A stretch of DNA of 64,000 nt from Octopus vulgaris (Eukaryota): positions 142,786,001 to 142,850,000 of the forward strand of contig OX597817.1 of assembly GCA_951406725.2 (NCBI GenBank), given 5' to 3'. The notes below the pieces were generated by a model that made no database searches, was not told where the DNA came from, and saw only the letters and a list, made by a program, of their open reading frames with translations. This document shows positions 15,080 to 48,918 of this stretch, piece after piece. A program made the translations under genes and the position numbers. Each line of letters begins with the position of its first letter. Position 1 is the stretch's first letter.

Positions 15080-15593
15080 GCTTATGTTTAATAGGACGGA
15101 AATAATGTATCTGTTTATGGAGATGAAACTAGACATGCAGCCAAGAGGGAAACGTTTTAAAATTCTATCATATCTAATGAAATGGTCAATACTCAACCTA
15201 TTAACAGGTCATTTACGTATCTCACTTTCCAGCCTCGTGGTTCAAGGTTCATTCCCACTGCCTGGCACCTTGGACTAGTGTTTCTTGCTATAGTCGCGGG
15301 CCGATCAAATCCTTATGAGTGGATTTGGTAGACGAAAACTGAAAGACGCCCGTCGTGTATATATATATATGTGTGTGTGTGTGTATGTGTATATATATAT
15401 ACATATATATATGCATCTACATTCACACACGCATATATATGTAATTATGAATGTATATATATACGTGTAAAACATTTCTTTAGTGAATGCGTTGGTAAAG
15501 TGGTTGGGCTGTTGCACTCACGATTCCAAGACTGTGATTTCGATTCCGAGAGCTGGTGTTGCCTTGTACTCTTGAGTAAACCACTTCATTTCA

Positions 15594-15642
<49 letters not shown>

Positions 15643-15653
15643 AATATATATAT

Positions 15654-15706
<53 letters not shown>

Positions 15707-15721
15707 TAGATATATACATAC

Positions 15722-15777
<56 letters not shown>

Positions 15778-15911
15778 GTACGTATATATATAGATAGATA
15801 GATATATATATATAGTTAATCCAAACATGAAAGCACAAAAAACACAACAACGCGAGGACGTGGAACCAATATAGTATTATTGGACGCTCGGGAAAGAAGG
15901 AAAGAACAAGG

Positions 15912-15946
15912 GTTTAACGTTTCGAGCGGAGCTCCTCGTCGGAAAC
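15912..15946 (-). ncRNA. Minimal type I hammerhead-like motif (U4C variant) in a Penelope-like terminal fragment
   Basis: GTTT-CCGACGA-G-GAGC-TCC-GCTC-GAAACGTT-AAAC. Confidence 0.55.
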
Positions 15947-17331
15947 ATAGGAGAAGGAAAGATCCAGAGAAGGGAAGCGAGAGGGAAAAAATTCGCCAAC
16001 GGTTCACACGCGGTCACACAAAGAGTTTTATTGAACAGGTTTTATAACACCGCGCTGTAACTGTTTCATTGCATCGTTCCAAGTAGTTTCGTTCAAACAC
16101 GTCTAGTGATTGTGTATATGTATGTATGTGAGTATGTGTGTATGTATGGGTGTATGTACGTATAATGCATGTATGTCTTTATGTATGTGTGTATATATGT
16201 GTATATGTGGTTGTGTATTTGTATGAATGTGTGTGTGGATGTGTGCATGTATATGTAGGTTTGTGAAGGTGCGTGGCTTAGTGGTTAGGGCATTTAACTC
16301 AAGATCGTAAGGTCGTGAGTTCAATTCGCGGCGACGTGTTGTGTCTATGAGCAAGACACTTTATTTCACGTTGCTCCAGTCCACTCGGCTGGCAAAAATG
16401 AATTGTATCCGTATTTCAAAGGGCCAGCCTTGTCACACACTGTGTCACGCTGAATCTCCCTGAGTACTACGTTAAGTGTACACGTGTCTGTGGAATGCTC
16501 AGCCACTTGCACGTTAATTTCACGTGCAACCTATTCCGTTGATCGCATCGGGTGGGACCCTCGTTGTCGCAACCGACGGAGTGCTCCTTATATGTGAGTT
16601 TATGTATGTATGTATGTAGGTATGTATGTATGTATGTATGTATGTATATATGTATGTATTTATGTACGTACGTATGTATGTATGTATGTATGTATGTATG
16701 TATGTATGTATGTATGTATGTATGTGTGCATGTATGTATGTATGTATGAGTGTGAGTGTTTATGTATGTATGAGAGAAGGCGTGTGGCTAAATGGTTAGA
16801 GTACTGCTCTCATGATCGTAAAATTGTGAGTTCGATTTCCGGCAGCTCGTTATATCTTTGTGTAAGACACTATATTTCCTTTTACTCCAGTCCACCTAGG
16901 TTGCAAAAATGTGTTGTTCCTGTAATTCAAACGGACCAACCTTGTCGCACTCTGTGTCATACTGAATTTCTCTGAGAACCGCGGTAAGGGTTGCGTGCCT
17001 GTAGAGTACTCAGCCACTTGCAAATTAAGTTCACGGTTAATCTGTTCCGTTCCTCAGATCAACCGGAACATTCACCATAGTAACCTAAGGTGCGCTATAT
17101 ATATATACATTCCTATATATATGCCACCATATATATAGGGATTAATAAACGCATTGAAGGTTTTCAGAAGAACAGATCCCCTCACTATCACTTTCGTAGA
17201 TCCGGGACAACAGTAGAAGATGCATGCACAAGAAACAGCTAAGTGCAACTGAACCCGACACAACGTGGTTGAAAATCAAGCTCCCTGACCACATAGTCAT
17301 TATTATGTCTAAAAATAAAATAAAAGCAATG

Positions 17332-17398
17332 TAGCACGAGTGGGGTTCGAACACACGCGGACTTAAGTCCAACGCCTTAACCACTCGGCCATCGTGCT
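17332..17398 (-). pseudogene. tRNA-Leu pseudogene with 16-nt deletion
   Basis: 67 nt; 3' anticodon stem and most of the variable arm lost; T-stem G>T. Confidence 0.88.
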
Positions 17399-19322
17399 GC
17401 TTGTGTCTAAGAACCCGGAAATAATATATCTGTTTATGAAGATGAAACGAGTCATGCAGCCTAGACGGAAATGGTTTAAAATTCTTTCATATCTGATGAA
17501 GTGGTCAATATTCAACCAATTTTTAGCCTCATGGTTCCAGGTTCAGTCCCATTGCCTGGCACATTGGATTAGTGTTTCTTGCTATAGGGGCGGGCCAATC
17601 GAATCCTTGTGAGTGGATTTGGTAGACGGAAACTGGAAGAAGCCCATTAAGTGTGTATTGTGTGTATGTATGTATGTGTGTATGTATGTATGTGTGTATG
17701 TATGTGTGTGCTTGAGTATGTGTGTATGTATGTATGTGTGTGTATGTATGAGTGTATGTGTGTATGTGTGTACGTATGTGTATATATAGGTATATGTATG
17801 TATGTCTGTATATGTATGCATGTGTGTATATGTGTATGTGGTTGTGTATTTGTGTGTATGTATGTGTGTGTGTATACGTGAGTTTATGTATGTAGGAGTG
17901 AATGTATGTATGTATGTGTTTATGTGTGTGTATATATGTGTTTATGTGTGTGTGTATGTACGTGTTTGTATGTATGTATGTGTGAATGTATGTTTCTATG
18001 TCTGTACGTACCATTGGTTACTTCGTAGGCATGCGTTATACGTGGTCTAGCACTTGGCACTGTTTCACAGCGATGGCATCCTGTAGGTTAGGCAGCCCAG
18101 CCATTACTTACCCATTCTTATTGTGGTCAAACCAAGAAATACACTGGTCTGGTCACTTCTGTTGCTTTATCTATGTTTAAAGAGAGGCCACCATGGATGA
18201 GGCGACACACCCGCACAAAGGTTCTAATATATAGTAAACCCTGCGATCCAGCCAACTAGCCTCTGTTGCTCTGTCTTTTAATGTATTTAAAAAGACCGCT
18301 GTTAACAAGAAATTCGCCAAAAGGCGGCGAGCTGGCAGAATCGTTCGCACCCTATATAAATTACTTAACGGCATTTCGTCCGACTCGACAACCTGAGTTC
18401 AAATTTCGCCGAGGTCGACGCTGCCTTTTATCCTTTCGGTGTCCATAAAATGAGTACCAGTTGAGTTTTGGTGTCGATGTGATCAAATTAGTTCCTCCCC
18501 CGAAATTGCTGGCTTTGTCTCAAAATTTTAAGCCAATAATATGTTTTCCGACGGCACTCAGCCACCCTCGAGCCACTCGGAACTAGGTTCAGTCCTATTG
18601 TGGTAACTTAGGCAAGAGTCTTCTACTATAGCCTTGGGCCAACCAAAGCCTTGGTAGACGGAGTCTGAAAGAAGCCCGTCGTGTATATATATTTATGTAC
18701 GTGTGTCTTTGTCTGTGTTTGTCCCAGCACCATCTTGACAACCGATACTGGTGTATTCTTGTCCCAGAAACTTGGCTATTCGGCAAAAAAACCCGATAGA
18801 ATGAGTGTAGGCTTACAAAGAATAATTCCTCGCGTCGAATTCTTCGACTTAAGGCGGTGCTCCAGCAAAGCCGCAGTTGAATGTATATATCGTCTATCTT
18901 TTATCTTTTACTTGTTTCAGTCATCAGACTAGGGCCATGCTGGGGCACCGCCTTGAAGAACTTTTAGTCGAATGAATCGATCGCAGCACTTATTGTTTTA
19001 TTTCTAAGCCTGGTACCTAGTCTATCATCTTCGTTTGCCGAACCGCTTCGTTACGGAGACATAAGTACATCAATACAATTGTCCAGTAGCAGCGGCTCGA
19101 CAAACATAGACACAAAGACACGCGCACGCACACACACACACGATATATAAATGTATATATATATATATACAAAATGAGGAAATGGAGAAATATATCTAAA
19201 TCAATCATCAACTATCAGATAATACCCAATCAATACTTTATTAAACCACTACACAATAGCAATGATATTATACATTAATATAGCACAAATATAACAAGAC
19301 ATAGAAATACATTTACATTGTA

Positions 19323-19432
19323 GCTGACAGCTGTTCGGCCGTGAAGACAGGTATGTCTCATTTAACCTATTAGCCATATAAAGCAGGTATAAATGAGTCA
19401 TTAACAAGAATATCTCACGGCCTCTTCAGAGA
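19323..19432 (-). ncRNA. Hammerhead-like motif with long stem II, one core A missing
   Basis: TCT-CTGAAGA-GGCCGTGA...TCACGGCC-GAACAGCTGTC-AG; palindromic ACAGCTGT helix III. Confidence 0.5.
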
Positions 19433-19736
19433 TTTTAATGCAAGTATGAGTACAAATCCTAAATAATTTACATATAAATATAAATATGTGTGCATACACA
19501 TTCATATTCTTACATATATATATACACAATAATAGAATATATACACAATAATACAATATAAACAATATAGATCAATATACATCAACAAACACAATAATGT
19601 TCTTCTCGAGGCTATAGTAGAAGACACTTGCCCAAGGTACCACTCATTGAGACTGAACCCGGAAGCATGTAGTTGGGAAGCAAGCGTCTTGCTACACAGC
19701 CACGTGTTTATGTCTAGAAATAAAATAAAAACGAAA

Positions 19737-19819
19737 TAGCACGAGTGGGGTTCGAACCCACGCGGACACTTGTCCATTGGAACTTAAGTCCAACGCCTTA
19801 ACCACTCGGCCATCGTGCT
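19737..19819 (-). tRNA. trnL-UAA: tRNA-Leu(TAA), intact
   Basis: Consensus cloverleaf; variable loop AAGT. Confidence 0.95.
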
Positions 19820-20271
19820 GCTCGTCTTTAATCTTTCGTAAATAAGTATCTGTTTATTGAGATGAAACTAGCCATGCAGCCAAGAGGGAAATGGTTTAAA
19901 ATTCTTTCATTTATAATGAAGTGGTCAATACTCAACCAGTTAACAACTCATTTACGTATTTCAATTTCCAGCCTCATGGTTCCAGGTTCAGTCCCACTGC
20001 GTGGAAAATTGGGCTGATGTTTCTTGCTATAAGCGTGGGCCGATCGAGTGGATTTGGTAGACGAAGACTAAAAGAAGCCCTAGTATTTTTCTCATTTTGT
20101 ATTATTAATTTACGGTAAAAATAATTTTACCTTTGCCCACGTAATACAGTAGATGAATTAATTGCATCGCAATTTTTAACATTTATGTATTAGCTTTGTT
20201 GGGTACTTCTCTAGCAGTATATTGGATATATGTTATCCCATGGAGGGTTGAATTTACAACCCCTATCTCAT

Positions 20272-20302
<31 letters not shown>

Positions 20303-20566
20303 GCACACACACGACGGGCTTCTTTCAGTTTCCGCCTATCAAATCCAGTCACAAGGAAGTGGTCGGCTCGAGACTAATGCATCATTTATCGAAACTGAGC
20401 ACGGAATTCTGTGGCTAGAAACAGATTTTATGTAAATGAATTGTTAATCAGAATATAAAGTCTCTAATTACTAAACACATCATTAGACATGAAAGATTCT
20501 GTGACGATTAGCGCTTGACTGGATTTCATAAACAGATACATTATTTCTGGGAATAACAGCGATAGC

Positions 20567-20649
20567 AGCACGATGGCCGAGTGGTTAAGACGTTGGACTT
20601 AATTTCAAATGGACTTGTGTCCGCGTGGGTTTGAACCCCACGAGTGCTA
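20567..20649 (+). pseudogene. tRNA-Leu(TAA) pseudogene
   Basis: T-loop TTTGAAC; mismatches in anticodon and acceptor stems. Confidence 0.85.
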
Positions 20650-21277
20650 ATATTTCTTTAAATTTTATTTTTAGCCTCAGGGATGGCTATGTGGTGAAGG
20701 AACTTGATTTGCAACCACGTTGTTTCGTGTTCACTCTCACTGCGTCGCATCTTGTGCCGGTATCTTGTATTGTAGTCCCCGACTGGTCCGAATATTAGGT
20801 GGGGTGAGGCCTTTCTATTGTCTGAATGACAGCCCGTTTGTCTGCCTGTCTGTCTTACTTATTTGGTCTGTGTGTATGTATGTATACGTTCTTTTATTGT
20901 TTTACTTGTTTCAGTCATTTGACTGCCGTCAGAGGGTTTTGTCGAGTAAATTATAAGCCTAGTATTTATTCCATCGTTTTCTTTCGCCCAACCGCTCAGT
21001 TACCGGGACATAAACACACAATCATCGGTTGTCAAGCGACGATAGGGAGGGACAAGCATAGATATACATAAATATATACGTTTAAAAATACGACGGACTT
21101 CTTTCAGTTTCCGTCAGCCAAATCCACTCACAAGGCTTTGGTCTTCTCGAGGCTATAGTAGAAGATACTTGCCCAAGGTACCACTCATTGAGACTGAACC
21201 CGGAAGCATGTAGTTGGGAAGCAAGCGTCTTGCTACACAGCCACATGTTTATTTCTAGAAATAAAATAAAAACGAAA

Positions 21278-21360
21278 TAGCACGAGTGGGGTTCGAACCC
21301 ACGCGGACACTCGTCCATTGGAACTTAAGTCCAACGCCTTAACCACTCGGCCATCGTGCT
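21278..21360 (-). tRNA. trnL-UAA: tRNA-Leu(TAA), intact
   Basis: Consensus stems; variable loop GAGT. Confidence 0.92.
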
Positions 21361-22924
21361 GCTCGTCTTTAATCTTTCGTAAATAAGTATCTGTTTATTG
21401 AGATGAAACTAGCCATGCAGCCAAGAGGGAAATGGTTTAAAATTCTTTCATTTATAATGAAGTGGTCAATACTCAACCAGTTAACAACTCATTTACGTAT
21501 TTCAATTTCCAGCCTCATGGTTCCAGGTTCAGTCCCACTGCGTGGAAAATTGGGCTGATATTTCTTACTAAAGGCGTGGGCCGATCGAGTGGATTTGGTA
21601 GACGAAGACTAAAAGAAGCCCGTCGTGTGTGTGTATTGTGAGTATGTAAGTATGTATGTAAGTATGTAAGTATGTAAGTATGTATGTAAGTATGTAAATA
21701 TGTATGTATGTATGTATGTATGTGCGTATGTATGAGTGTATGTATGACTGGATATATGTGTGTATGTATGTATGTATGTATGTATGTATGTATGTATGTA
21801 TGTTGTGTATATGTGTATATATGTGTGTAAGTATGTGTATATGTTGTGTATTTCTGTGTATGTATGTGCGTGTGGATGTGTGCATGTATATGTGAGTTTG
21901 TGAAGGTTTAGTGGTTAGGGCATTTGACTCATGATCCTAAGGTCGTGGGTTCAATTCACGGTGATGCGTTGTGTCCTTGAGCAAGATATTTTATTTCATG
22001 TTGCTCCAGTCCATTCAACTGGCAAAAATGAGTAGTACCTGTATTTCAAAAGGCCAGCCTTATCACACTCTGCGCCACCCTGATTCAACTTCAGAACTAC
22101 GTTAAGGTTACATGTGTCTGTTCAGCAAGCTGTTCCGTTGATCGTACCAGTTGGTATCCTCGTTGTCGTAACCGACGGAGTGCTCCTTATATGTGAGTTT
22201 ATGTATGTATGTGTGTATGTATGTGTATATGTATATATGTGTGTATGTATGTATGTGTGTGTGTGTGAATGTATGTATGTATGTATGTATGTATGTATGT
22301 TTATATGTATTTGTGTGTATGTATGTAAGTATGTATGTATGAGTGTGTTTATGTATGTATGAGTCAAGGTGTGTGGCTTAATGGTTAGAGTACTGGTCAC
22401 ACAATCGTAAGATACTGAGTTCGATTTCCGGCGGCTCGTTAACTGTGTGAGACACTTTATTTCATTTTATTCCAGTCAACTCAGCTTGCAAAAATGTGTT
22501 GTACATGTTATTCAAACGGACCAAATATGTCACATTCTGTGTCATACTGAATCTCTCTGAGAACCAAGGTAAAGGTATGCGTGTCTCTGGTGTGCTCAGC
22601 CACTTGCAAGTTAATTTCACGGTTAATATGTTCCGTTCCTCAGATCAATCGGAACACTCACCGTAGTAACCCATGATCCGCCATATATATATATATATAT
22701 ATATCCCTATATATATGCGACGCATATATATAGGGATTAATAAACGCATTGATGGGTTTCAGTAGAACAGATCCACCTCACTATCACTTTCGTAAATCAG
22801 GGAGAACAGAAGATACTTGCACAAGAAGCAGAGAAGTGCAACTGAACCTGACACATCGTGGTTGAAAATCTCGCTCCCTGACTACATAGTCATGTTTATT
22901 TCTAAAAATAAAATAAAAGCGAAA

Positions 22925-23007
22925 TAGCACGAGTGGGGTCCGAGCCCACGCGGACACTTGACCATTGGAACTTAAGTCCTACGCCTTAACCGCTCGGCCA
23001 TAGTGCT
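22925..23007 (-). pseudogene. tRNA-Leu(TAA) pseudogene
   Basis: T-loop CTCGGAC; mismatches in acceptor, anticodon and variable stems. Confidence 0.85.
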
Positions 23008-24858
23008 GCTCGTGTTTAAGTCTTCGGAAATAATGTATCTGTTTATGGAGATGAAACTAGCATGCGGCCAAGAGGGAAATGGTTTAAAGTTCTTTCTTTT
23101 CTAATAAAGTGCTCAGTAATCAGCCTATCAACAGCTCCCAGGCACATGGTTCCAGGCCAGGTTCAGTCCCACTGCCTGGCACATTAGGGTAGTGTCTCTT
23201 GCTATAGGCGCGGGCCGATCAAATACTCGTGAGTAGATTAGGTAGATGAAAACTGGAAGAAGCCGTCGTGTGTGTGTATTTTGTGTCGGTAGTATATATG
23301 CATGTTTGTATGTATGTGTGTATGTATGTGTGTATGAGTGCATGTATGTGTGTATGTAGGTATGTGCATGTATGTGTTTATATGTATGTATGTGTATATA
23401 TGTGTATGTGGTTGTGAATTTGTGTGTATGTATGCGTGTGTGCGTGTATATGTGAGTTTATGTATGTATCAGTGAATGTTTGTATGTATGTGTTTCTCTG
23501 TGTGTGTGCACGTATGTATGTTATGTATGTATGTGAGAATGTATGTTTCTATGTCTGTACGTACCATTGGTTACTTCGCAGGCATGCGTTATACGCGGTC
23601 TAGCACTTGGCACTGTTTCACAGCGATGGCATTCTGTAGGTTAGGCAACCCAGCCATTACTCACCCATTCTAACGGTTGTCAAACCAAGAAATACTCTAG
23701 TCCCGTCACTTCTGCGAATTTCTCCATGTTTCAAGACAGACCGCCATGAATGTGGCGATACCCGCACAGAGGTTCTAATATATAGTAAGCCCTCCGATCC
23801 AGCCAACTACGCTCTGTTGCTCTGTCTTTTAATGTATTTAAAAAGACCGCCATTAACAAGAAGTTCTCCTAAAGGCGGCGAGCTGGCAGAATCGTTAGCA
23901 CGCCATGCAAATCACTTAGCATTTCGTCCGACTCGACATTCTGAGTTCAAATTTCGCCGAGGTCGACGCTGCCTTTTATCCTTTAGGCGTCCATAAAATG
24001 AGTACCAGCTGAGTACTGGTGTCGATGTGATCAAATTAATTCCACCGCGAAATTGCTGGCTTTGTCTCAAAATTTGAATAAGTTCTCCAACGGCATTCAG
24101 CCACTCTCCAAGCACTCAGATCTAGGTTCAGTCCTATTGCGTGGTAACTTGGGCAATAGTCTTTTACTATAGCGTCGGGCCGACCAAAGCCTTGCTAGAC
24201 GGAAACTGAAAGAAGCCCGTCAAATACATATATTTATATGCGTGTCGTAGCGTTGATTTCTCAGACTAAAGGCAGTGCTCCAACATGACTGCAGTCAAAT
24301 ATATATATCTTATACATCTTACCTTTTACTTGTTTCAGTCATTAGACTGCGGCCAAGCTGGGGCACCGGCTTGAAAGACTTTTAGTCGAATGAATCGACT
24401 GCATTACTTATTGTTTTGTTTTTAAGCCTGGTATTCTATTACTCTTCTTTTGCCGAACCGCTTGTTTACGGAGACATAAGTACAACAGCACTGGTTGTCC
24501 AGTAGCGACGGGTGGGCAAACATAGACACAATGTCACATATCCACACATTATACACACACACATGATATATAAATGTATATATATACACACACACACATA
24601 CACACGACGGAGTTCTTTCAGTTTCCGCCTATCAAATCCAGTCACAAGGAAGTGTCCGGCTTGCGGCTAGTGCATGAATTATTGAGACTGAGCCCGGAAT
24701 TCTGTGGCTAGAAACAGAAATATGTAAATGAGTTGTTAATCAGAATATAAAGTCTCTAATTATTAAACACATCATTAGACATGAAACATTGCAAACCGAT
24801 TAGCGCTTGACTGGATTTCATAAGCAGATACAATATTTCTGGGCGTAATAGCGTTAGC

Positions 24859-25825: not shown

Positions 25826-25901
25826 TAGCACGAGTGTGGTTCGAACCCACTCGGACAATTGTCCATTGAGTCCAACGCCTTAACCACTTGGCCATCGTGC
25901 C
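25826..25901 (-). pseudogene. tRNA-Leu pseudogene lacking the anticodon
   Basis: 76 nt; 7-nt deletion across the anticodon loop. Confidence 0.88.
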
Positions 25902-30189: not shown

Positions 30190-30650
30190 ATATTTCTTTA
30201 TATTATATTTTCAGGTGTCTTGGGGAAATTTCGAACCTGTTTTCTCATTCCTAAGGTATTATATTCTTTAAATCACTAATTTGTTTCAATGATTTGACTG
30301 CGGCCATGCCGGAGCACCACCTCAAAGGCTTTTAGTCGAAGAAATTGACTCCAGGACTTATTCTTTGTATGCCTAGTACTTATTCTATCGGTCTCTTTAG
30401 CCGAACACTACGCTACGAGGACATAAAGACCACAGTATCGGTTGTCAAGAGATGGTGGGGAATAAACGCGCACACCCGCACACATACACACACATAAATA
30501 TATACATATATCTATGCGACGGGCTTCTTTCAGTTTCTGTCTACAATCCTCTCACAAGGATATGTTCCGCGGCAGGCTATAGTAGAAGACACCCAAATTA
30601 CCACGCAGTGGGACTGAACCCGGAAGTAAGCTTCTTACTGCGCCACGACG

Positions 30651-35536: not shown

Positions 35537-37010
35537 GTGTGTATGTCTACATATACATATGTGTGTACGCATATATGTATATATATACACGCACACATGC
35601 AACATACTCACACACACACGCACACACATGCATGTGTATACTGGAAAGCGAGGGCAGGGGGAAATAATGACAATTGACAATATAATAGCATGTATGTTAT
35701 ACACACGCGTGTGCGTATGTGTGTGTGTCGGTGTGAGAAATTCATAAAATACGTACACTAAATGATAAAATACAAACAAAATAAATTATTCCAAATACGG
35801 TATTTATGCAAATGTAATCCATATTGTTCTGTCTATTTTGCTTGCAGCGCACTTTTTGTTTTTTTTGTTTTTTTCATTATATATGATTGAAAGATTTGAT
35901 ATTTTATACAACTTCCGCAGCCTGGTCATAATTTGAGCGGCGTTTTTCCTAATACTTCTATCCTTGTTTATCACGGGGTTTTGGTTACAAAACTATACGC
36001 TGATAAAGAATCATTTCTACGCAGTTTGTAAATGAATCGAATGGTAAATTCATTGCCACCTAACTTCTGCCCCCACAACAATGAAACTTCGAATGCCACA
36101 TATTTTCTTGAGCCTCACTTCCTCTTCTTTTCATCGTTGCAATTATCAGACGCATTTGAAGTTTTTCCGTTCACTGCTCCCATACTGGTGGTACAAGTAT
36201 GTAGATTCGAATAAAACAGAGATTCTCAACCATTTTTGCCCATGGACCTCTTTGGTTCTTATTTACTCAGGGGTGGGATCCTCAAAGCCATTCGATGTCT
36301 AAGAACTCCTATTATACTTTTATTATTGAATATTAGGAAGGCGGCGGGCTGGCAGAATCGTGAGCACGCCGGGCGAAATGCATAGCGTTATTTCGTCTGC
36401 TGTAACGTTCTGAGTTCAAATTCCGCCGAGGTCGACTTTGCTTTTCATCCTTTCGGGGTCGATTAAATAAGTACTAGTTACGCACTGGGGTCGATATAAT
36501 TGACGTAATCCATTTGTCTGTCCTTGTTTGTCCCCTTTGTGTTTAGCCCCTTGTGGGTAGTAAAGAAATAGGTATTTCGTCTGCTGCTATGTTCTGAGTT
36601 TAAATTCCGCTGCGGTCGACTTGACCTTTCATCCTTTCGGATGTAATGCATTCGAAAGAATAAAGATACCACATCATCTATCACGCAGGTTACGCGTTCG
36701 TGCCTTAGGTAGAGGGGTCCGTAAGAAAAATACACTGCAGTCGCCACTCAATGTCAGCACAACCTGCAATAAGCTGGCAAAATATTCTGGAAGTCTTGGA
36801 ATGGGAACAAAAACGATGCGATTCCGGGCACGCTGAAGCAATTCATGCATGCATGCATGCATGGATGAATGGACGGACGGACGGACGGACTTTGTGGTGG
36901 GATCCACTGTCAAATCACTCTCATCAGTTGCATTATGTATACATTTCTACATTATTTACATCATTTACATTTGATGGATATTATTATTGTTATTATTATT
37001 ATTATTATTA

Positions 37011-37467
37011 AGTGAGAGAGCAGTGCATGCCATCAAAGTGACACTGGGGTAAAATATACGAAGCCCAATATACCCATCATGACTACCCGTCTGATAAGGG
37101 TACACCAGGCACATGCATCACAACCATATGTGCGCGACATGGTGATCTCATATCAAGATAAACAGCGCATGCCTTTACAGGTGGGGCCCAGTTAGAATTT
37201 TCTTCTGGTCGAGTAGCCCATCCCGCTCAAAAGGTCCCTGAATAAGGATTGTTTAAGGATGTTGAACGAATCACCCATGTTTCCAAAGTTGAACTATCCA
37301 AGCCTCCAAGAATTCCTCTCAACACACGGCTATGATGCTCCCCCACTACTTCTGCTCGTGATCAGAGATGCACATATCGTCAGCCACTAAGGGACATGCT
37401 CAACTGGTTAAGGTCAAACAACTGACAAGCAAATCTGTGGTATTAAGCAGAATATTTGCTGCAGCCC
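37011..37467. mobile_element. 457-bp non-coding element bounded by (TAT)n on both sides
   Basis: High-complexity block with sharp microsatellite boundaries and no credible ORF. Confidence 0.45.
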
Positions 37468-37518
<51 letters not shown>

Positions 37519-38872
37519 GTTTTTTCCATCTTTCTTCAAATTTTCTTCCGTTTCTCGCCGAGTGTTTTCCATACACCTAGGGCAGAGAAGCTCATTGTAT
37601 GCATTCCCAGATTACACACACAAATTCACAGATAAAATATGTATTTAAGGATTAATAAATAAATAAATTCATGGATGGATGTTGTTTTCACAGCGATAGT
37701 GATCTTCTCAGTACATGAGCCGTTCCAGTTAATACGATTTTTTGGCACTTCCTGTAGGGATGGTAAGCCTGGAATCATTTTCAAATAGGTTTCAGTACCT
37801 TTTTTTTATCATTTCTAGAGATCCTACAACCACTGGTACTGTAGTCACCTTGAGATGCCACATTTTTTCAATTTCTATTAGCAGGTCTTTATATTTACTA
37901 ATCTTGTCAAGTTCTTTCGCCGCTATGTTGTGATCGCAAGGGATACTCATGTCAATTAATAAACACATCTTTTTTGTCTGATCTTTTATAATAATATCCG
38001 GTTTATTAGCTTTTATAGTCTTGTCGGTCTGTATGGGGAAGTCCCATAGAGTCGACACATTTTCTCCCTCAGTCACAGCTTCAGGATGTTGTTTATACCA
38101 TTTGTCAGCGATTTTGATTTTATAATACCGACATATTGTCCAATGTAAATACTGGCCGACTCTGTCATGTCTTGCTTTATATTCTGCAGGTGCTAAGACT
38201 CTACACCCTGAGATTAGGTGGTCTATTGTTTCAATCTCATCGTTACAGAATCGGCATTTTGAGTCAGCTCCATTTTTTATCACATTGTCTTGGTAGTTCC
38301 GGGTTAAGAAGCTTTGGTCTTAAGCATCTAATATGAAACCTTCACTCTCTGCTTTTAGCCCTGAGCTTCATAACCATTGGTGCGTGTGTTTCTGGTCGAC
38401 ATCAGCTTGTTTGCTACGGGCCACATACTTGCCATGGAGAGGTTTCTGTTCCCATCTGCTAGCTAAATTTTCATGCAATTAATAAATCTTTGCAATTAAT
38501 TTTATTTTCTTTGCAGCTGCAGTTGGCGCATTTCCTTCAGCCTGCTCAATCTGGTGGGTATCTAAGAGATCAGCAGTGAAATTTTTGCTCTCTTTGAGAA
38601 TAGAGTGAAGTCTTTTCAGTCTTTCAACAGGTTTTAGCATCCAATCGCTGGTTGCTTCAAGGTATTTGACCAGTCTGATTGTGGTGGTTTTGTAAGATCA
38701 AACCTCGACCTCCCTGAGCTCTGGGAAGGTAAAGGCGATCCACGTCTGCCTTTGGATGGTGCATCTTATTACAAGTCAGTAGCTTGCGGATTTTTCTGTC
38801 AATTTTCATTATTTCACTGGTATTCCAGTTAAGCACATTGAAGCTATAAAGAACAACTGGTACTGCTAAGAA
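37519..38872 (-). mobile_element. 5'-truncated R4/Dong-like non-LTR retrotransposon with restriction-like endonuclease; disrupted ORF
   Basis: ORF 37792-38283 has CRFC..ETIDHLISGC zinc knuckle, RHD, WDF, KPDI..LID motifs; upstream HHPKADVDRLYLPRAQGGRGL; flanked by (TAA)n. Confidence 0.88.
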
Positions 38873-39007
<135 letters not shown>

Positions 39008-39063
39008 ATTATTATTATTCAGGTTAGTAGCCCGTGCTCTTAACCACTGCGCCATATGCCCGT

Positions 39064-39157
39064 GGGCATATGGCATAGTGGTTAAGAGTGCGGGCTACTA
39101 ACCCCAAGATTCCGAGTTCGATTACAGGCAGTGACCTGAATCATCATCATCATCATC

Positions 39158-39193
<36 letters not shown>

Positions 39194-39364
39194 TCGAAAA
39201 ATACCTTGGGAATGAGAACCCAGGTTCGAAATTTCCCCCAAGACACCTGATGAAGGCTGGAGGGTAGATCAGCTGAAACGTTGTGTTAACAACAAACAAG
39301 ATGAGGACAAATATCTGTCGAATGTATATAATGCACATTATTTCTCATCTCTTAATTATAGAAC
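39064..39364 (+). mobile_element. Composite element: tRNA-like head + (TCA/TAA)n + hammerhead-containing tail
   Basis: A box TGGCATAGTGG, B box GAGTTCGATT, microsatellite 39141-39190, tail with CTGATGA..GAAA; second copy on - at 48408-48755. Confidence 0.75.
39242..39287 (+). ncRNA. Minimal type I hammerhead ribozyme motif
   Basis: GACAC-CTGATGA-A-GGCTG-loop-CAGCT-GAAACGTT-GTGTT; stem I GACAC/GTGTT; palindrome AACGTT. Confidence 0.68.
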
Positions 39365-40544
39365 TGTATACATTTCTGTTGTATTATTTAATTATGATGT
39401 GATCGATGTGAAGTCGATGATTCGATCGTAGATGCATCTGTTCTTTCTTCTTCTAGCTGAAGATGTTTCGGAAACGATTAAGTTCCACTCGCTGCACGAA
39501 TTTCAGTTGCGTTTCCCAACAGAACGTTTCACCTTGTATTAGTGCACACCCCACTCGGATAAAGGAATTACAGATCATAATCAGCTTTTAGAGGGCGGTT
39601 TGTAGCAGGGGGGGTTGATCCCAACCAGGATAATCTCAATAGAAAAGGATAAACTGGATTCCAGAAGAAGGATGAAAAGTGGAGGAAACAAACTAATTCG
39701 ATACTTCCATGAGATGGCTATGAAAGACTCGGGATGTCTGACTTGAAATATAAATATGATATTACTGTTGCTATTGTCAAAGAAAGTCAGAGGAAAGGAT
39801 GTGGAAACTATCGCGAATTTCTCTCGATGCGATACTTGGGAAGTTCTTTGGAAGTGTATTACTTAAACGGTATGAGAAAATAACAACTGAGCAAATTAAA
39901 ACTCCGTAGGGAGCTCCGGAAGGGTAGAAAAACCATAGGTATGTATTGAGTGTGGTCTTGGTTGTGTATATGGGGGTACTGGAAGCATGAAACCTGTGGT
40001 GCCTTTGATACGTAATATCTAGTTTTAGATGTTCATTTGTATCATAGAGTCTCTACACAGAGCTATGAGGGCTTGGGTTACACAGTCCAGCATTGTATAG
40101 TTTGATGTTAAATTAGGGATTTAGTAGGGCTGTATTCCAACATCAGAGTTAAATACAAAGGGACTGTAGCTGTTGTGTCTAAAATGTCGTGGAACTAAGT
40201 TAAAACCAAAACTACTTGTTATTAGCGTATGATTTCATCTGTTCTTGTAGAAGACACGCAGGGTTTGGTTGATCCTTCTAGCAGTGGAGCCACAAAGTCC
40301 GGATGGAAAATAAACAACCGGAAGACGGAATTTCAAGGCAGTGACACAACCTGATTTCATTATTATCGAAGTTCAAAAGCTAACAGAGGTCAGCCACTTT
40401 AAGTGTCCGGGCAATAGAGTAACTATTGGTGGAACAGACCTCAGAACGTAAAGAGTCGATGCGCTTACCATTCTGTCAGTTTTGAAATAATAATAAAAAA
40501 CATTTTAAAGAAAATCTTGAACTCCTTGTCAATTCTTTCGCAAT

Positions 40545-48407: not shown

Positions 48408-48594
48408 CATTATTTACATTATTTACATTTGACGGATATTTGTCCTCATCTTGTTTGTTATTAACACAACATTTCGGCTGATATACCCTCCAGCCTTCAT
48501 CAGGTGTCTTGGGGAAATTTCTTACCTGGGTTCTCATTCCTAATGTATTTTTCGATGTTATTATTATTATTATTATTATTATTGTTGTTGTTTT

Positions 48595-48638
<44 letters not shown>

Positions 48639-48755
48639 GATGATGTTGTTGTTGTAGTCATTGTTGTTATTGTTATTATTTATGTCACTGCCTGGAATTG
48701 AACTCGGAATCTTGGGGTTAGTAGCCCGCGCTCTTAACCACTACGCGATATGTCT
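48408..48755 (-). mobile_element. Second copy of the tRNA-head/(TAA,CAA)n/hammerhead element
   Basis: Head 48755-48684, microsatellite and tail collinear with 39191-39335. Confidence 0.75.
48463..48508 (-). ncRNA. Minimal type I hammerhead ribozyme motif
   Basis: GACAC-CTGATGA-A-GGCTG-GAGGGTATAT-CAGCC-GAAATGTT-GTGTT. Confidence 0.65.
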
Positions 48756-48779
48756 ACGGGCATAATAATAATAATAATG

Positions 48780-48819
<40 letters not shown>

Positions 48820-48833
48820 TAATAATAATAATG

Positions 48834-48896
<63 letters not shown>

Positions 48897-48918
48897 TATC
48901 TTGTTTTATTCATCATCC

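Follow-up and report, generated by a model that had tools for sequence, protein, structure and literature searches.

Two copies of one repeat in the window

The window, the whole stretch of 64,000 nt of Octopus vulgaris DNA analyzed here, contains two copies of one repeat, copy A on the plus strand (39064-39366) and copy B on the minus strand (48755-48408), which are ~90% identical in head and tail. The sequence-only reading had described an A box, a B box, a spacer, and a tail in both, and all of these parts are confirmed, as are the (TCA/TAA/CAA)n composition of the spacer and the CTGATGA...GAAA core, 5-bp stem I, 5-bp stem II, and GUU triplet of a hammerhead ribozyme; the hammerheads of both copies also carry a bulged (extra) A after A9. 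In copy B, the sequence identifies a tRNA-derived head (48679-48755, minus strand) that forms the 5' part of the terminal repeat (pLTR) of a Penelope-like element (PLE). The head has an A box with a G9>C change (48748-48738) and an intact B box (48703-48694), and it is followed on the same strand by a (TAA/CAA)n spacer (48559-48678), whose length varies among copies, and by a tail (48408-48558) that corresponds to the start of the PLE ORF, with its ATG at 48537 and the frame open to the end of the copy. The tail stops at the first RT-initiation boundary, directly followed by T8, and includes a minimal type I hammerhead (48463-48508, minus strand; C3 at 48503, predicted cut after 48468) damaged by C15.2>U. 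On the plus strand, 48756-48897 is assigned, partly from the family pattern, to the remnant of an inverted arm, comprising the fold-back junction, the reversed spacer, and a reversed tail end at ~48897. A target-site duplication (TSD) was looked for around copy B, and none was found.

Copy A has the same parts on the plus strand: the tRNA-derived head (39064-39140) with an intact A box (39071-39081) and a B box carrying C61>A (39116-39125), a (TCA/TAA)n spacer (39141-39190), and a tail (39191-39366), in which the ORF start (ATG at 39212) is frameshifted by a 1-nt insertion and a ~40-nt PLE "tail" extension runs to the second boundary. Its minimal hammerhead (39242-39287; C3 at 39247, predicted cut after 39282) has a G10.1-U11.1 wobble, and in each copy one promoter box has a lesion and the ribozyme has one CpG-type lesion. 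Inverted arms, missed in the sequence-only reading, lie beside both copies, and the (TTA)n upstream of each is the spacer in reverse. The arm of copy A (38875-39070, minus strand) comprises a reversed partial head (39070-39022) and the reversed spacer, and its 3' end (36949-36982, minus strand) is separated from the remainder by nested insertions. Insertion A is a complete inverted pair spanning 36949-39366, flanked on the plus strand by an 11-bp TSD (left, 36938-36948; right, 39367-39377), with a left arm that is interrupted by a truncated LINE and by what is probably a SINE. The LINE, which we take to be R4/Dong-like, is 5' truncated, ends in (TAA)n, and lies at 37480-38880 (minus strand) inside the (TAA)n spacer of the inverted arm; a second repeat, probably the SINE, occupies ~37010-37470 in the same spacer, which has served as a landing site for other elements.

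A third tail fragment, reported previously beside a tRNA gene, is present at 30211-30260, and its strand has to be corrected: it lies on the minus strand, opposite tRNA-Leu(TAA). It breaks off in the hammerhead core at CCTGA, with neither stem II nor GAAA, and is not a ribozyme. A link between the fragment and the tRNA-Leu gene was also rejected, as the two are on opposite strands and the family head is unrelated to this tRNA (z = 3.1, rank 18 of 21). A cluster at 1198-31414 of the window comprises 14 tRNA-Leu(TAA) genes, most of them minus-strand genes, at intervals of ~1 to 7 kb; the window also has two weaker Rfam tRNA matches (17332-17398 and 25826-25901).

Assignment to a Penelope/Poseidon-type element

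Both window repeats are almost certainly pLTRs of an autonomous Penelope/Poseidon-type element. Extension of one of 30 tail-picked loci, which had extra sequence upstream of the head, revealed an ORF, and a consensus built from 24 RT-bearing loci and 19 ORF-start loci gave a single ORF of 835 amino acids (aa) with an RT and a GIY-YIG-type domain. From the ORF stop onward come ~30 nt of sequence, a palindrome, the tRNA-like head, (TAA)n, the ATG, the hammerhead, and then the ORF; the ATG lies inside the "tail," and the hammerhead is encoded within the first 25 codons. The sequence-only reading had proposed an independent, noncoding SINE-retrozyme, which is not supported: the head lies ~30 nt downstream of the stop of the RT/GIY-YIG ORF and the tail consists of the first codons of that ORF. 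In a Pfam search, the 835-aa ORF matched RVT_1, and its C-terminal piece had no match; we take the C-terminal domain to be a GIY-YIG endonuclease, and relatives carry PF00078, PF26215, and PF28514. The hammerhead-coded N terminus is retained in one relative (P0003), and a relative that is 51% identical over a 332-aa query has a similar N-terminal peptide. In a quick tree built without named references, which kept 36 of 89 candidate rows after a 250-aa length filter and de-duplication, the element grouped with P0001 to P0004, apart from a second PLE family of the same genome. No intact full-length copy was found among the loci examined, the longest open stretch being 569 aa.

Four of six variable sites occur in similar proportions in short and ORF-bearing copies, and the other two (tail positions 18 and 33) look enriched in short copies. 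Since the variable sites are mostly common to both copy types, a separate SINE lineage is not needed, and the features of a tRNA-derived SINE (non-autonomous, with its own master, and having only the 3' tail in common with a LINE) were not found in this family. Near the 3' boundary (consensus ORF codons ~37 to 42), an AAT-GTA-AAT unit varies in copy number among copies, in steps of 9 nt that keep the reading frame.

Two other repeats were observed. The second PLE family (L349 to L356), which is young and presumably Neptune-like, has open frames of 787 to 1,095 codons, a pyrimidine-rich sense strand, and a minimal hammerhead; no tRNA head was seen in the one copy read. Another repeat, found at two loci (L094 and L147), has a CTGATGAG...CGAAA core with a repeated CTTCGAAA downstream, unlike minimal hammerheads, and may be a rewired hammerhead.

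Abundance and insertion pattern

The family was found in 18 of 100 evenly spaced 10-kb stretches, at a density of 11 to 28 per Mb, which scales to ~30,000 to 80,000 insertions (~50,000) in the 2.8-Gb assembly. In this unbiased sample, 13 of 14 head-bearing insertions carry the tail, and 13 of 17 tail-bearing insertions carry the head. The abundance together with the 13/14 linkage shows that the association is not due to chance, and the genome-wide linkage on which the sequence-only reading had staked its proposal stands: the tRNA-derived head, of Pol III type, goes together with a minimal hammerhead that is of the dimer type and has a GUU site. Short copies far outnumber ORF-bearing ones, and the 3' end of the ORF is reached by 3 of 18 random insertions. 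Of 87 loci selected by the tail, 49 have an inverted arm; head-to-head pairs are frequent, and an upstream pLTR precedes the ORF in many of 30 ORF-start loci. In runs labelled as four organisms, 15,270 to 23,786 contigs each match the region, and among the matches listed, one piece joins the ORF end to the head in three of the four.

Head-to-tail tandem monomers with a hammerhead each were not found in 90 tail-selected loci. Three direct repeats were considered as monomer arrays and rejected: one is a local duplication that includes its flank, one repeats only the tail, and one is due to a separate copy nearby; likewise, two matches 2.9 kb apart in one contig (C2) are not a full tandem element. 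At seven loci (L260, L262, L263, L268, L271, L282, and L284), a pLTR continues to ~200 to 260 nt past the ORF 5' region and is then joined to another pLTR piece; these composite insertions suggest a further RT start site or a template switch.

The tRNA-derived head and the boundaries of the element

The head aligns nearly colinearly with genomic tRNAs, with the A and B boxes at canonical tRNA positions. Its best match among 21 tRNAs is the genomic tRNA-Arg(TCG) (z = 7.9), and two tRNAs that were compared in reverse orientation, as accidental controls, gave z values below 1. The head score of 63 exceeds the maximum of 47 among 130 random sequences passing the A/B-box pattern, and a hidden Markov model (HMM) from 20 genomic tRNAs matches the family head (E = 5e-4) and both window copies. 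Rfam detected no tRNA in the near-consensus head, the cloverleaf being lost, and ARAGORN at a relaxed threshold gave only noise. On these sequence comparisons, the head is tRNA derived despite the silence of Rfam. Of 120 head alignments (not de-duplicated), 45 retain both boxes intact, and across neutrally decaying copies, they are kept no better than their flanks.

The 5' boundary was mapped at 87 loci, namely, 90 tail-selected loci minus the two window copies and one duplicate, with position 0 set at tRNA position 1. A head is present at 61 of the 87, of which 18 end within the head, 39 end at -7 to +7, and 4 run into the ORF. Thirty-nine of the 43 that reach the head 5' end therefore stop within 15 nt, compared with 4.1 expected from the loss rate inside the head (P ~ 1e-35); six loci that seemed to end at -12 to -21 were scored as -7, since the extra bases contain no body sequence and are remnants of the fold-back. 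In the unbiased sample, 8 of the 11 insertions that reach the head 5' end stop at this boundary, and only 1 of 18 stops at the comparable stem II of the hammerhead. The boundary is sharp, with the A box ~14 nt farther downstream. L272 and L273, two copies that bear the ORF, begin at -2 and continue through the hammerhead into the ORF, and at two other loci (L265 and L266), the ORF end is present upstream of the head. At the other end, there are two 3' boundaries ~45 nt apart within the ORF start, corresponding to an optional 30- to 45-nt PLE tail, which is present as the extension in copy A and absent from copy B.

RNA reads are clipped at -7 (393, 306, and 309 reads in three runs) and, in all three runs, at two 3' positions 45 nt apart. 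The -7 boundary is likely the 5' end of the element RNA. The three runs, which belong to one study, are apparently unstranded, and come from another labelled organism, have 10,383, 7,433, and 6,931 reads on the element (0.06 to 0.08%), even on both strands, and no pile-up of molecule starts or ends at the 5' boundary or the cut site. These reads are best explained as element copies riding in host transcripts, and they are compatible with either the presence or the absence of Pol III initiation and of cleavage. Among the runs listed as containing the element, none was recorded as RNA, which counts neither for nor against its transcription.

The hammerhead ribozyme

At E <= 10, Rfam finds neither a tRNA nor a hammerhead in copy A; by sequence, the stems and the core are present. 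The self-duplex of helix III, which would form the dimer helix, has a predicted energy of -3.5 kcal/mol in the consensus and in copy A, and C15.2>U weakens it to +0.8 kcal/mol in copy B. The hammerhead would probably cut only as a dimer or with protein help. RNA ends and circular junctions at the GUU site had been suggested as a check on cleavage; there is no end pile-up, and there is no junction among the stronger ones listed, in three runs of one study whose libraries were not designed for the purpose.

The motif is intact in 53 of 248 tail alignments (not de-duplicated), and conservation of the core relative to the flanks is flat apart from CpG decay (181 heads and 299 tails). The expectation that the core would be better conserved than its flanks thus fails, as is expected for dead insertions, and the ribozyme itself is not refuted by it. 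The sole shared core variant sits at the free position 7, and related PLE families from metagenomes have the same core with different stems; on both grounds, selection on the ribozyme shows in the source lineages and not in the copies. Copies begin far upstream of the predicted cut and run ~50 or 95 nt past it, and since they span it, they were made from uncut RNA, and the short copies are not defined by cleavage. A cut would part the ATG from the ORF, so that it would limit expression or process tandem RNA and would not create short copies.

Transcription of the element

We propose that the RNA of this Penelope/Poseidon-type element would start at the tRNA-derived internal promoter in the pLTR and be made by Pol III, a reading to which we assign a probability of roughly 0.57. 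After the model for the Poseidon element of the anole, from which these steps are borrowed, the element protein would bind the ORF start, prime RT just downstream of the pLTR, and copy to the 5' end of the RNA, and the cDNA would fold back at the terminal palindrome to give the inverted arm; the SINE-like copies would be cDNAs from the 5' end of the uncut mRNA of the element. A type 2 Pol III promoter would place the start ~14 nt upstream of the A box, which is where the boundary lies. A palindrome at the pLTR 5' end has also been described for PLEs whose motifs are of the Pol II type (available text of PMC3846280), so that a fixed boundary does not identify the polymerase.

Nowhere in the 2,913 nt of the modelled transcript does the Pol III terminator T4 (TTTT) occur on the sense strand. 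In the ORF, 0 T4 were found versus 2.9 expected from codon shuffles (P = 0.021), and other nulls, applied to an earlier, shorter consensus, gave P values of 0.025 to 0.06. T4 is present in 30 of 30 control LINE ORFs from four clusters, with the four of similar T content having 1.9 to 2.6 per kb, in 8 of 8 ORFs of the second PLE family, in which no tRNA head was seen, and in 40 of 41 metagenome PLE stretches (41 of 79 loci examined); the test is modest, and this comparison sets a consensus against single copies. Among single decayed copies of the family, 22 of 30 longest frames are without T4. That Pol III makes the ORF-bearing RNA is a reading that these sequence data slightly favor. The strongest form of the proposal, in which an autonomous coding retrotransposon would be transcribed over its full 2.9 kb by Pol III from a captured tRNA promoter, with terminators purged from the frame and the uncapped RNA translated, is put forward tentatively, at somewhat less than even odds. 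A 2.9-kb Pol III transcript exceeds the 100- to 700-bp SINEs and the 311- to 1,263-bp TRIMp3 elements (PMC10886601, in the parts available), and the Pol III model must include translation of uncapped RNA.

The most serious alternative, which we consider unlikely, is that Pol II, acting at an internal promoter, transcribes this PLE, with the head being a captured SINE or tRNA relic and the boundary arising from the Pol II start or from palindrome fold-back. Precedents are found in the available portions of two papers: the internal promoter of Penelope in Drosophila virilis lacks a TATA box and contains a DPE (PMC2377424), and Adineta pLTRs combine 5' palindromes with TATA and Inr motifs (PMC3846280). 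In the octopus genome, ordinary tRNA-like SINE heads are 64 to 69% alike to the pLTR head, and relatives in which no A or B box was detected are also low in T4, with 1 in 1,791 nt (L366), 1 in 1,783 nt (L372), and 1 in 1,650 nt (L394). Against this alternative are the position of the boundary at the distance fitting a type 2 Pol III start, the contrast between stops at the head and at stem II, and the ORF without T4.

It is more doubtful still that Pol III makes only short RNAs of solo pLTRs, ending at flanking T-runs and copied in trans like a SINE, with the ORF mRNA being a Pol II read-through product. The great excess of short copies, the number of heads with both boxes intact, the T8 right at the end of copy B, which could act as a terminator, and the apparent enrichment of tail positions 18 and 33 in short copies all suit such a division. 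However, the other four variable sites have similar proportions in both copy types, copies that start at the head continue into the ORF, and the absence of T4 from the ORF is not required by this division of labor. In addition, the template of the anole element must include the initial 172 nt of the ORF (PMC11167929, as far as the accessible text goes), which solo copies, with ~120 to 165 nt, may lack.

An independent SINE-retrozyme family like Sm-alpha, propagating by self-cleavage at GUU and circularization, would account for the close linkage of head and hammerhead and has a precedent in the union of a Pol III promoter with a hammerhead in Sm-alpha (PMC6765202, available sections), but it is very improbable and largely refuted, as every part belongs to the autonomous element, the copy ends do not coincide with the cut site, the direct repeats inspected are not monomer arrays, and reads do not pile up at the cut.

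Relation to known elements and implications

The layout of the element, with the start of the 835-aa ORF in the tail, inverted pairs, a TSD, and two 3' ends, matches what is described in the available parts of PMC11167929, PMC3846280, and PMC4209133. The ORF of Poseidon_Ac, from the green anole, starts within the hammerhead; RT is initiated at two sites, 111 to 118 nt into the ORF, with uncut RNA as the template (PMC11167929). As far as the accessible text of the two papers goes, the octopus element shares with Poseidon_Ac (PMC11167929) and Adineta Pen2a (PMC3846280) a single RT and GIY-YIG ORF of ~840 aa, a pLTR that holds the first codons with the hammerhead overlapping the ORF start, two RT start sites with an optional 30- to 45-nt tail, an uncut RNA template, inverted pLTR pairs, a 9- to 11-bp TSD, and a palindrome at the pLTR 5' end. 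It differs from both in that its promoter part is a tRNA-derived A/B-box cassette with (TAA)n and not TATA, Inr, or DPE motifs, that its unit is without T4, and that its consensus has no intron between head and ORF.

The ribozyme is the same as the minimal PLE hammerheads in the available sections of Cervera and de la Pena 2014 (PMC4209133), having a short helix I, an extra base between 9 and 10.1, G10.1-C11.1, a palindromic 15.2-16.2, and no loop 3, and occurring mostly solo or in opposite-strand pairs 100 to 700 bp apart; those sections regard minimal dimer-type hammerheads, solo or in opposite-strand pairs, as a signature of truncated PLEs and describe no adjacent Pol III-type promoter. Sm-alpha and Sj-alpha of Schistosoma (PMC6765202, in part) also have a Pol III-type promoter followed by a hammerhead, but they are noncoding tandem repeats freed by cleavage, whereas the octopus element is coding, forms inverted pairs, and uses uncut RNA. 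The TRIMp3 elements Cassandra, Helenus, and Ajax likewise carry a small-RNA-derived Pol III promoter in a retroelement terminal repeat, but they are short, non-autonomous LTR elements whose autonomous partners are argued, in the text available, to require Pol II (PMC10886601), whereas the octopus element is an autonomous PLE. In animal non-LTR retrozymes (bioRxiv 10.64898/2026.07.22.740005, in the portions available), which derive from PLE pLTRs, the hammerhead is also of type I; they are defined as tandem arrays in which every unit has a hammerhead, an arrangement not seen in the octopus family.

PLE promoters studied to date are Pol II-like, according to the available text of PMC2377424 and PMC3846280. 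In the full-text literature, as far as accessible, no description of a tRNA-derived promoter in a PLE was found, and an earlier Repbase or Dfam entry may exist; the available parts of an octopus repeat annotation (PMC13282606), the Naiad paper (PMC8557442), and a mollusc SINE paper (PMC4758252) make no mention of one.

A possible second case is a tandem PLE on a metagenome contig (L364), with a 2,791-bp unit, an open frame, and an RT that is 45% identical. After its stop codon (L364:2741-3100), motifs resembling the A and B boxes precede a short (AAT)n and a hammerhead that overlaps an ATG, in the same order as in the octopus element. Its head scores 47 against the tRNA set, a value reached by 1 of 130 random pattern-passing sequences, and is matched by neither the tRNA HMM nor Rfam; there are two T4 per unit, and the quick tree leaves its position relative to the octopus family undecided. 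The common order suggests that L364 may be a second, unrelated animal PLE with the tRNA-type layout and that the arrangement recurs, and it is a lead, not proof. If the arrangement recurs, it would explain how Sm-alpha and other "SINE plus hammerhead" elements arose.

Pol III ordinarily synthesizes only short, noncoding RNAs. To our knowledge, Pol III has been thought to be restricted to short, non-autonomous elements, and R2 combines co-transcription by Pol I with a ribozyme. If Pol III is not used, the octopus element would be an ordinary PLE with a captured tRNA fragment. If it is, a Pol III-driven coding retroelement would parallel R2, and the cap-independent translation of a Pol III RNA would be directly testable. 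The tens of thousands of apparent SINEs would be accounted for as 5' ends of a PLE mRNA, a point of importance to repeat annotation, and one RNA would be both the mRNA and the template of SINE-like copies, so that the split between LINEs and SINEs would collapse in this PLE family.
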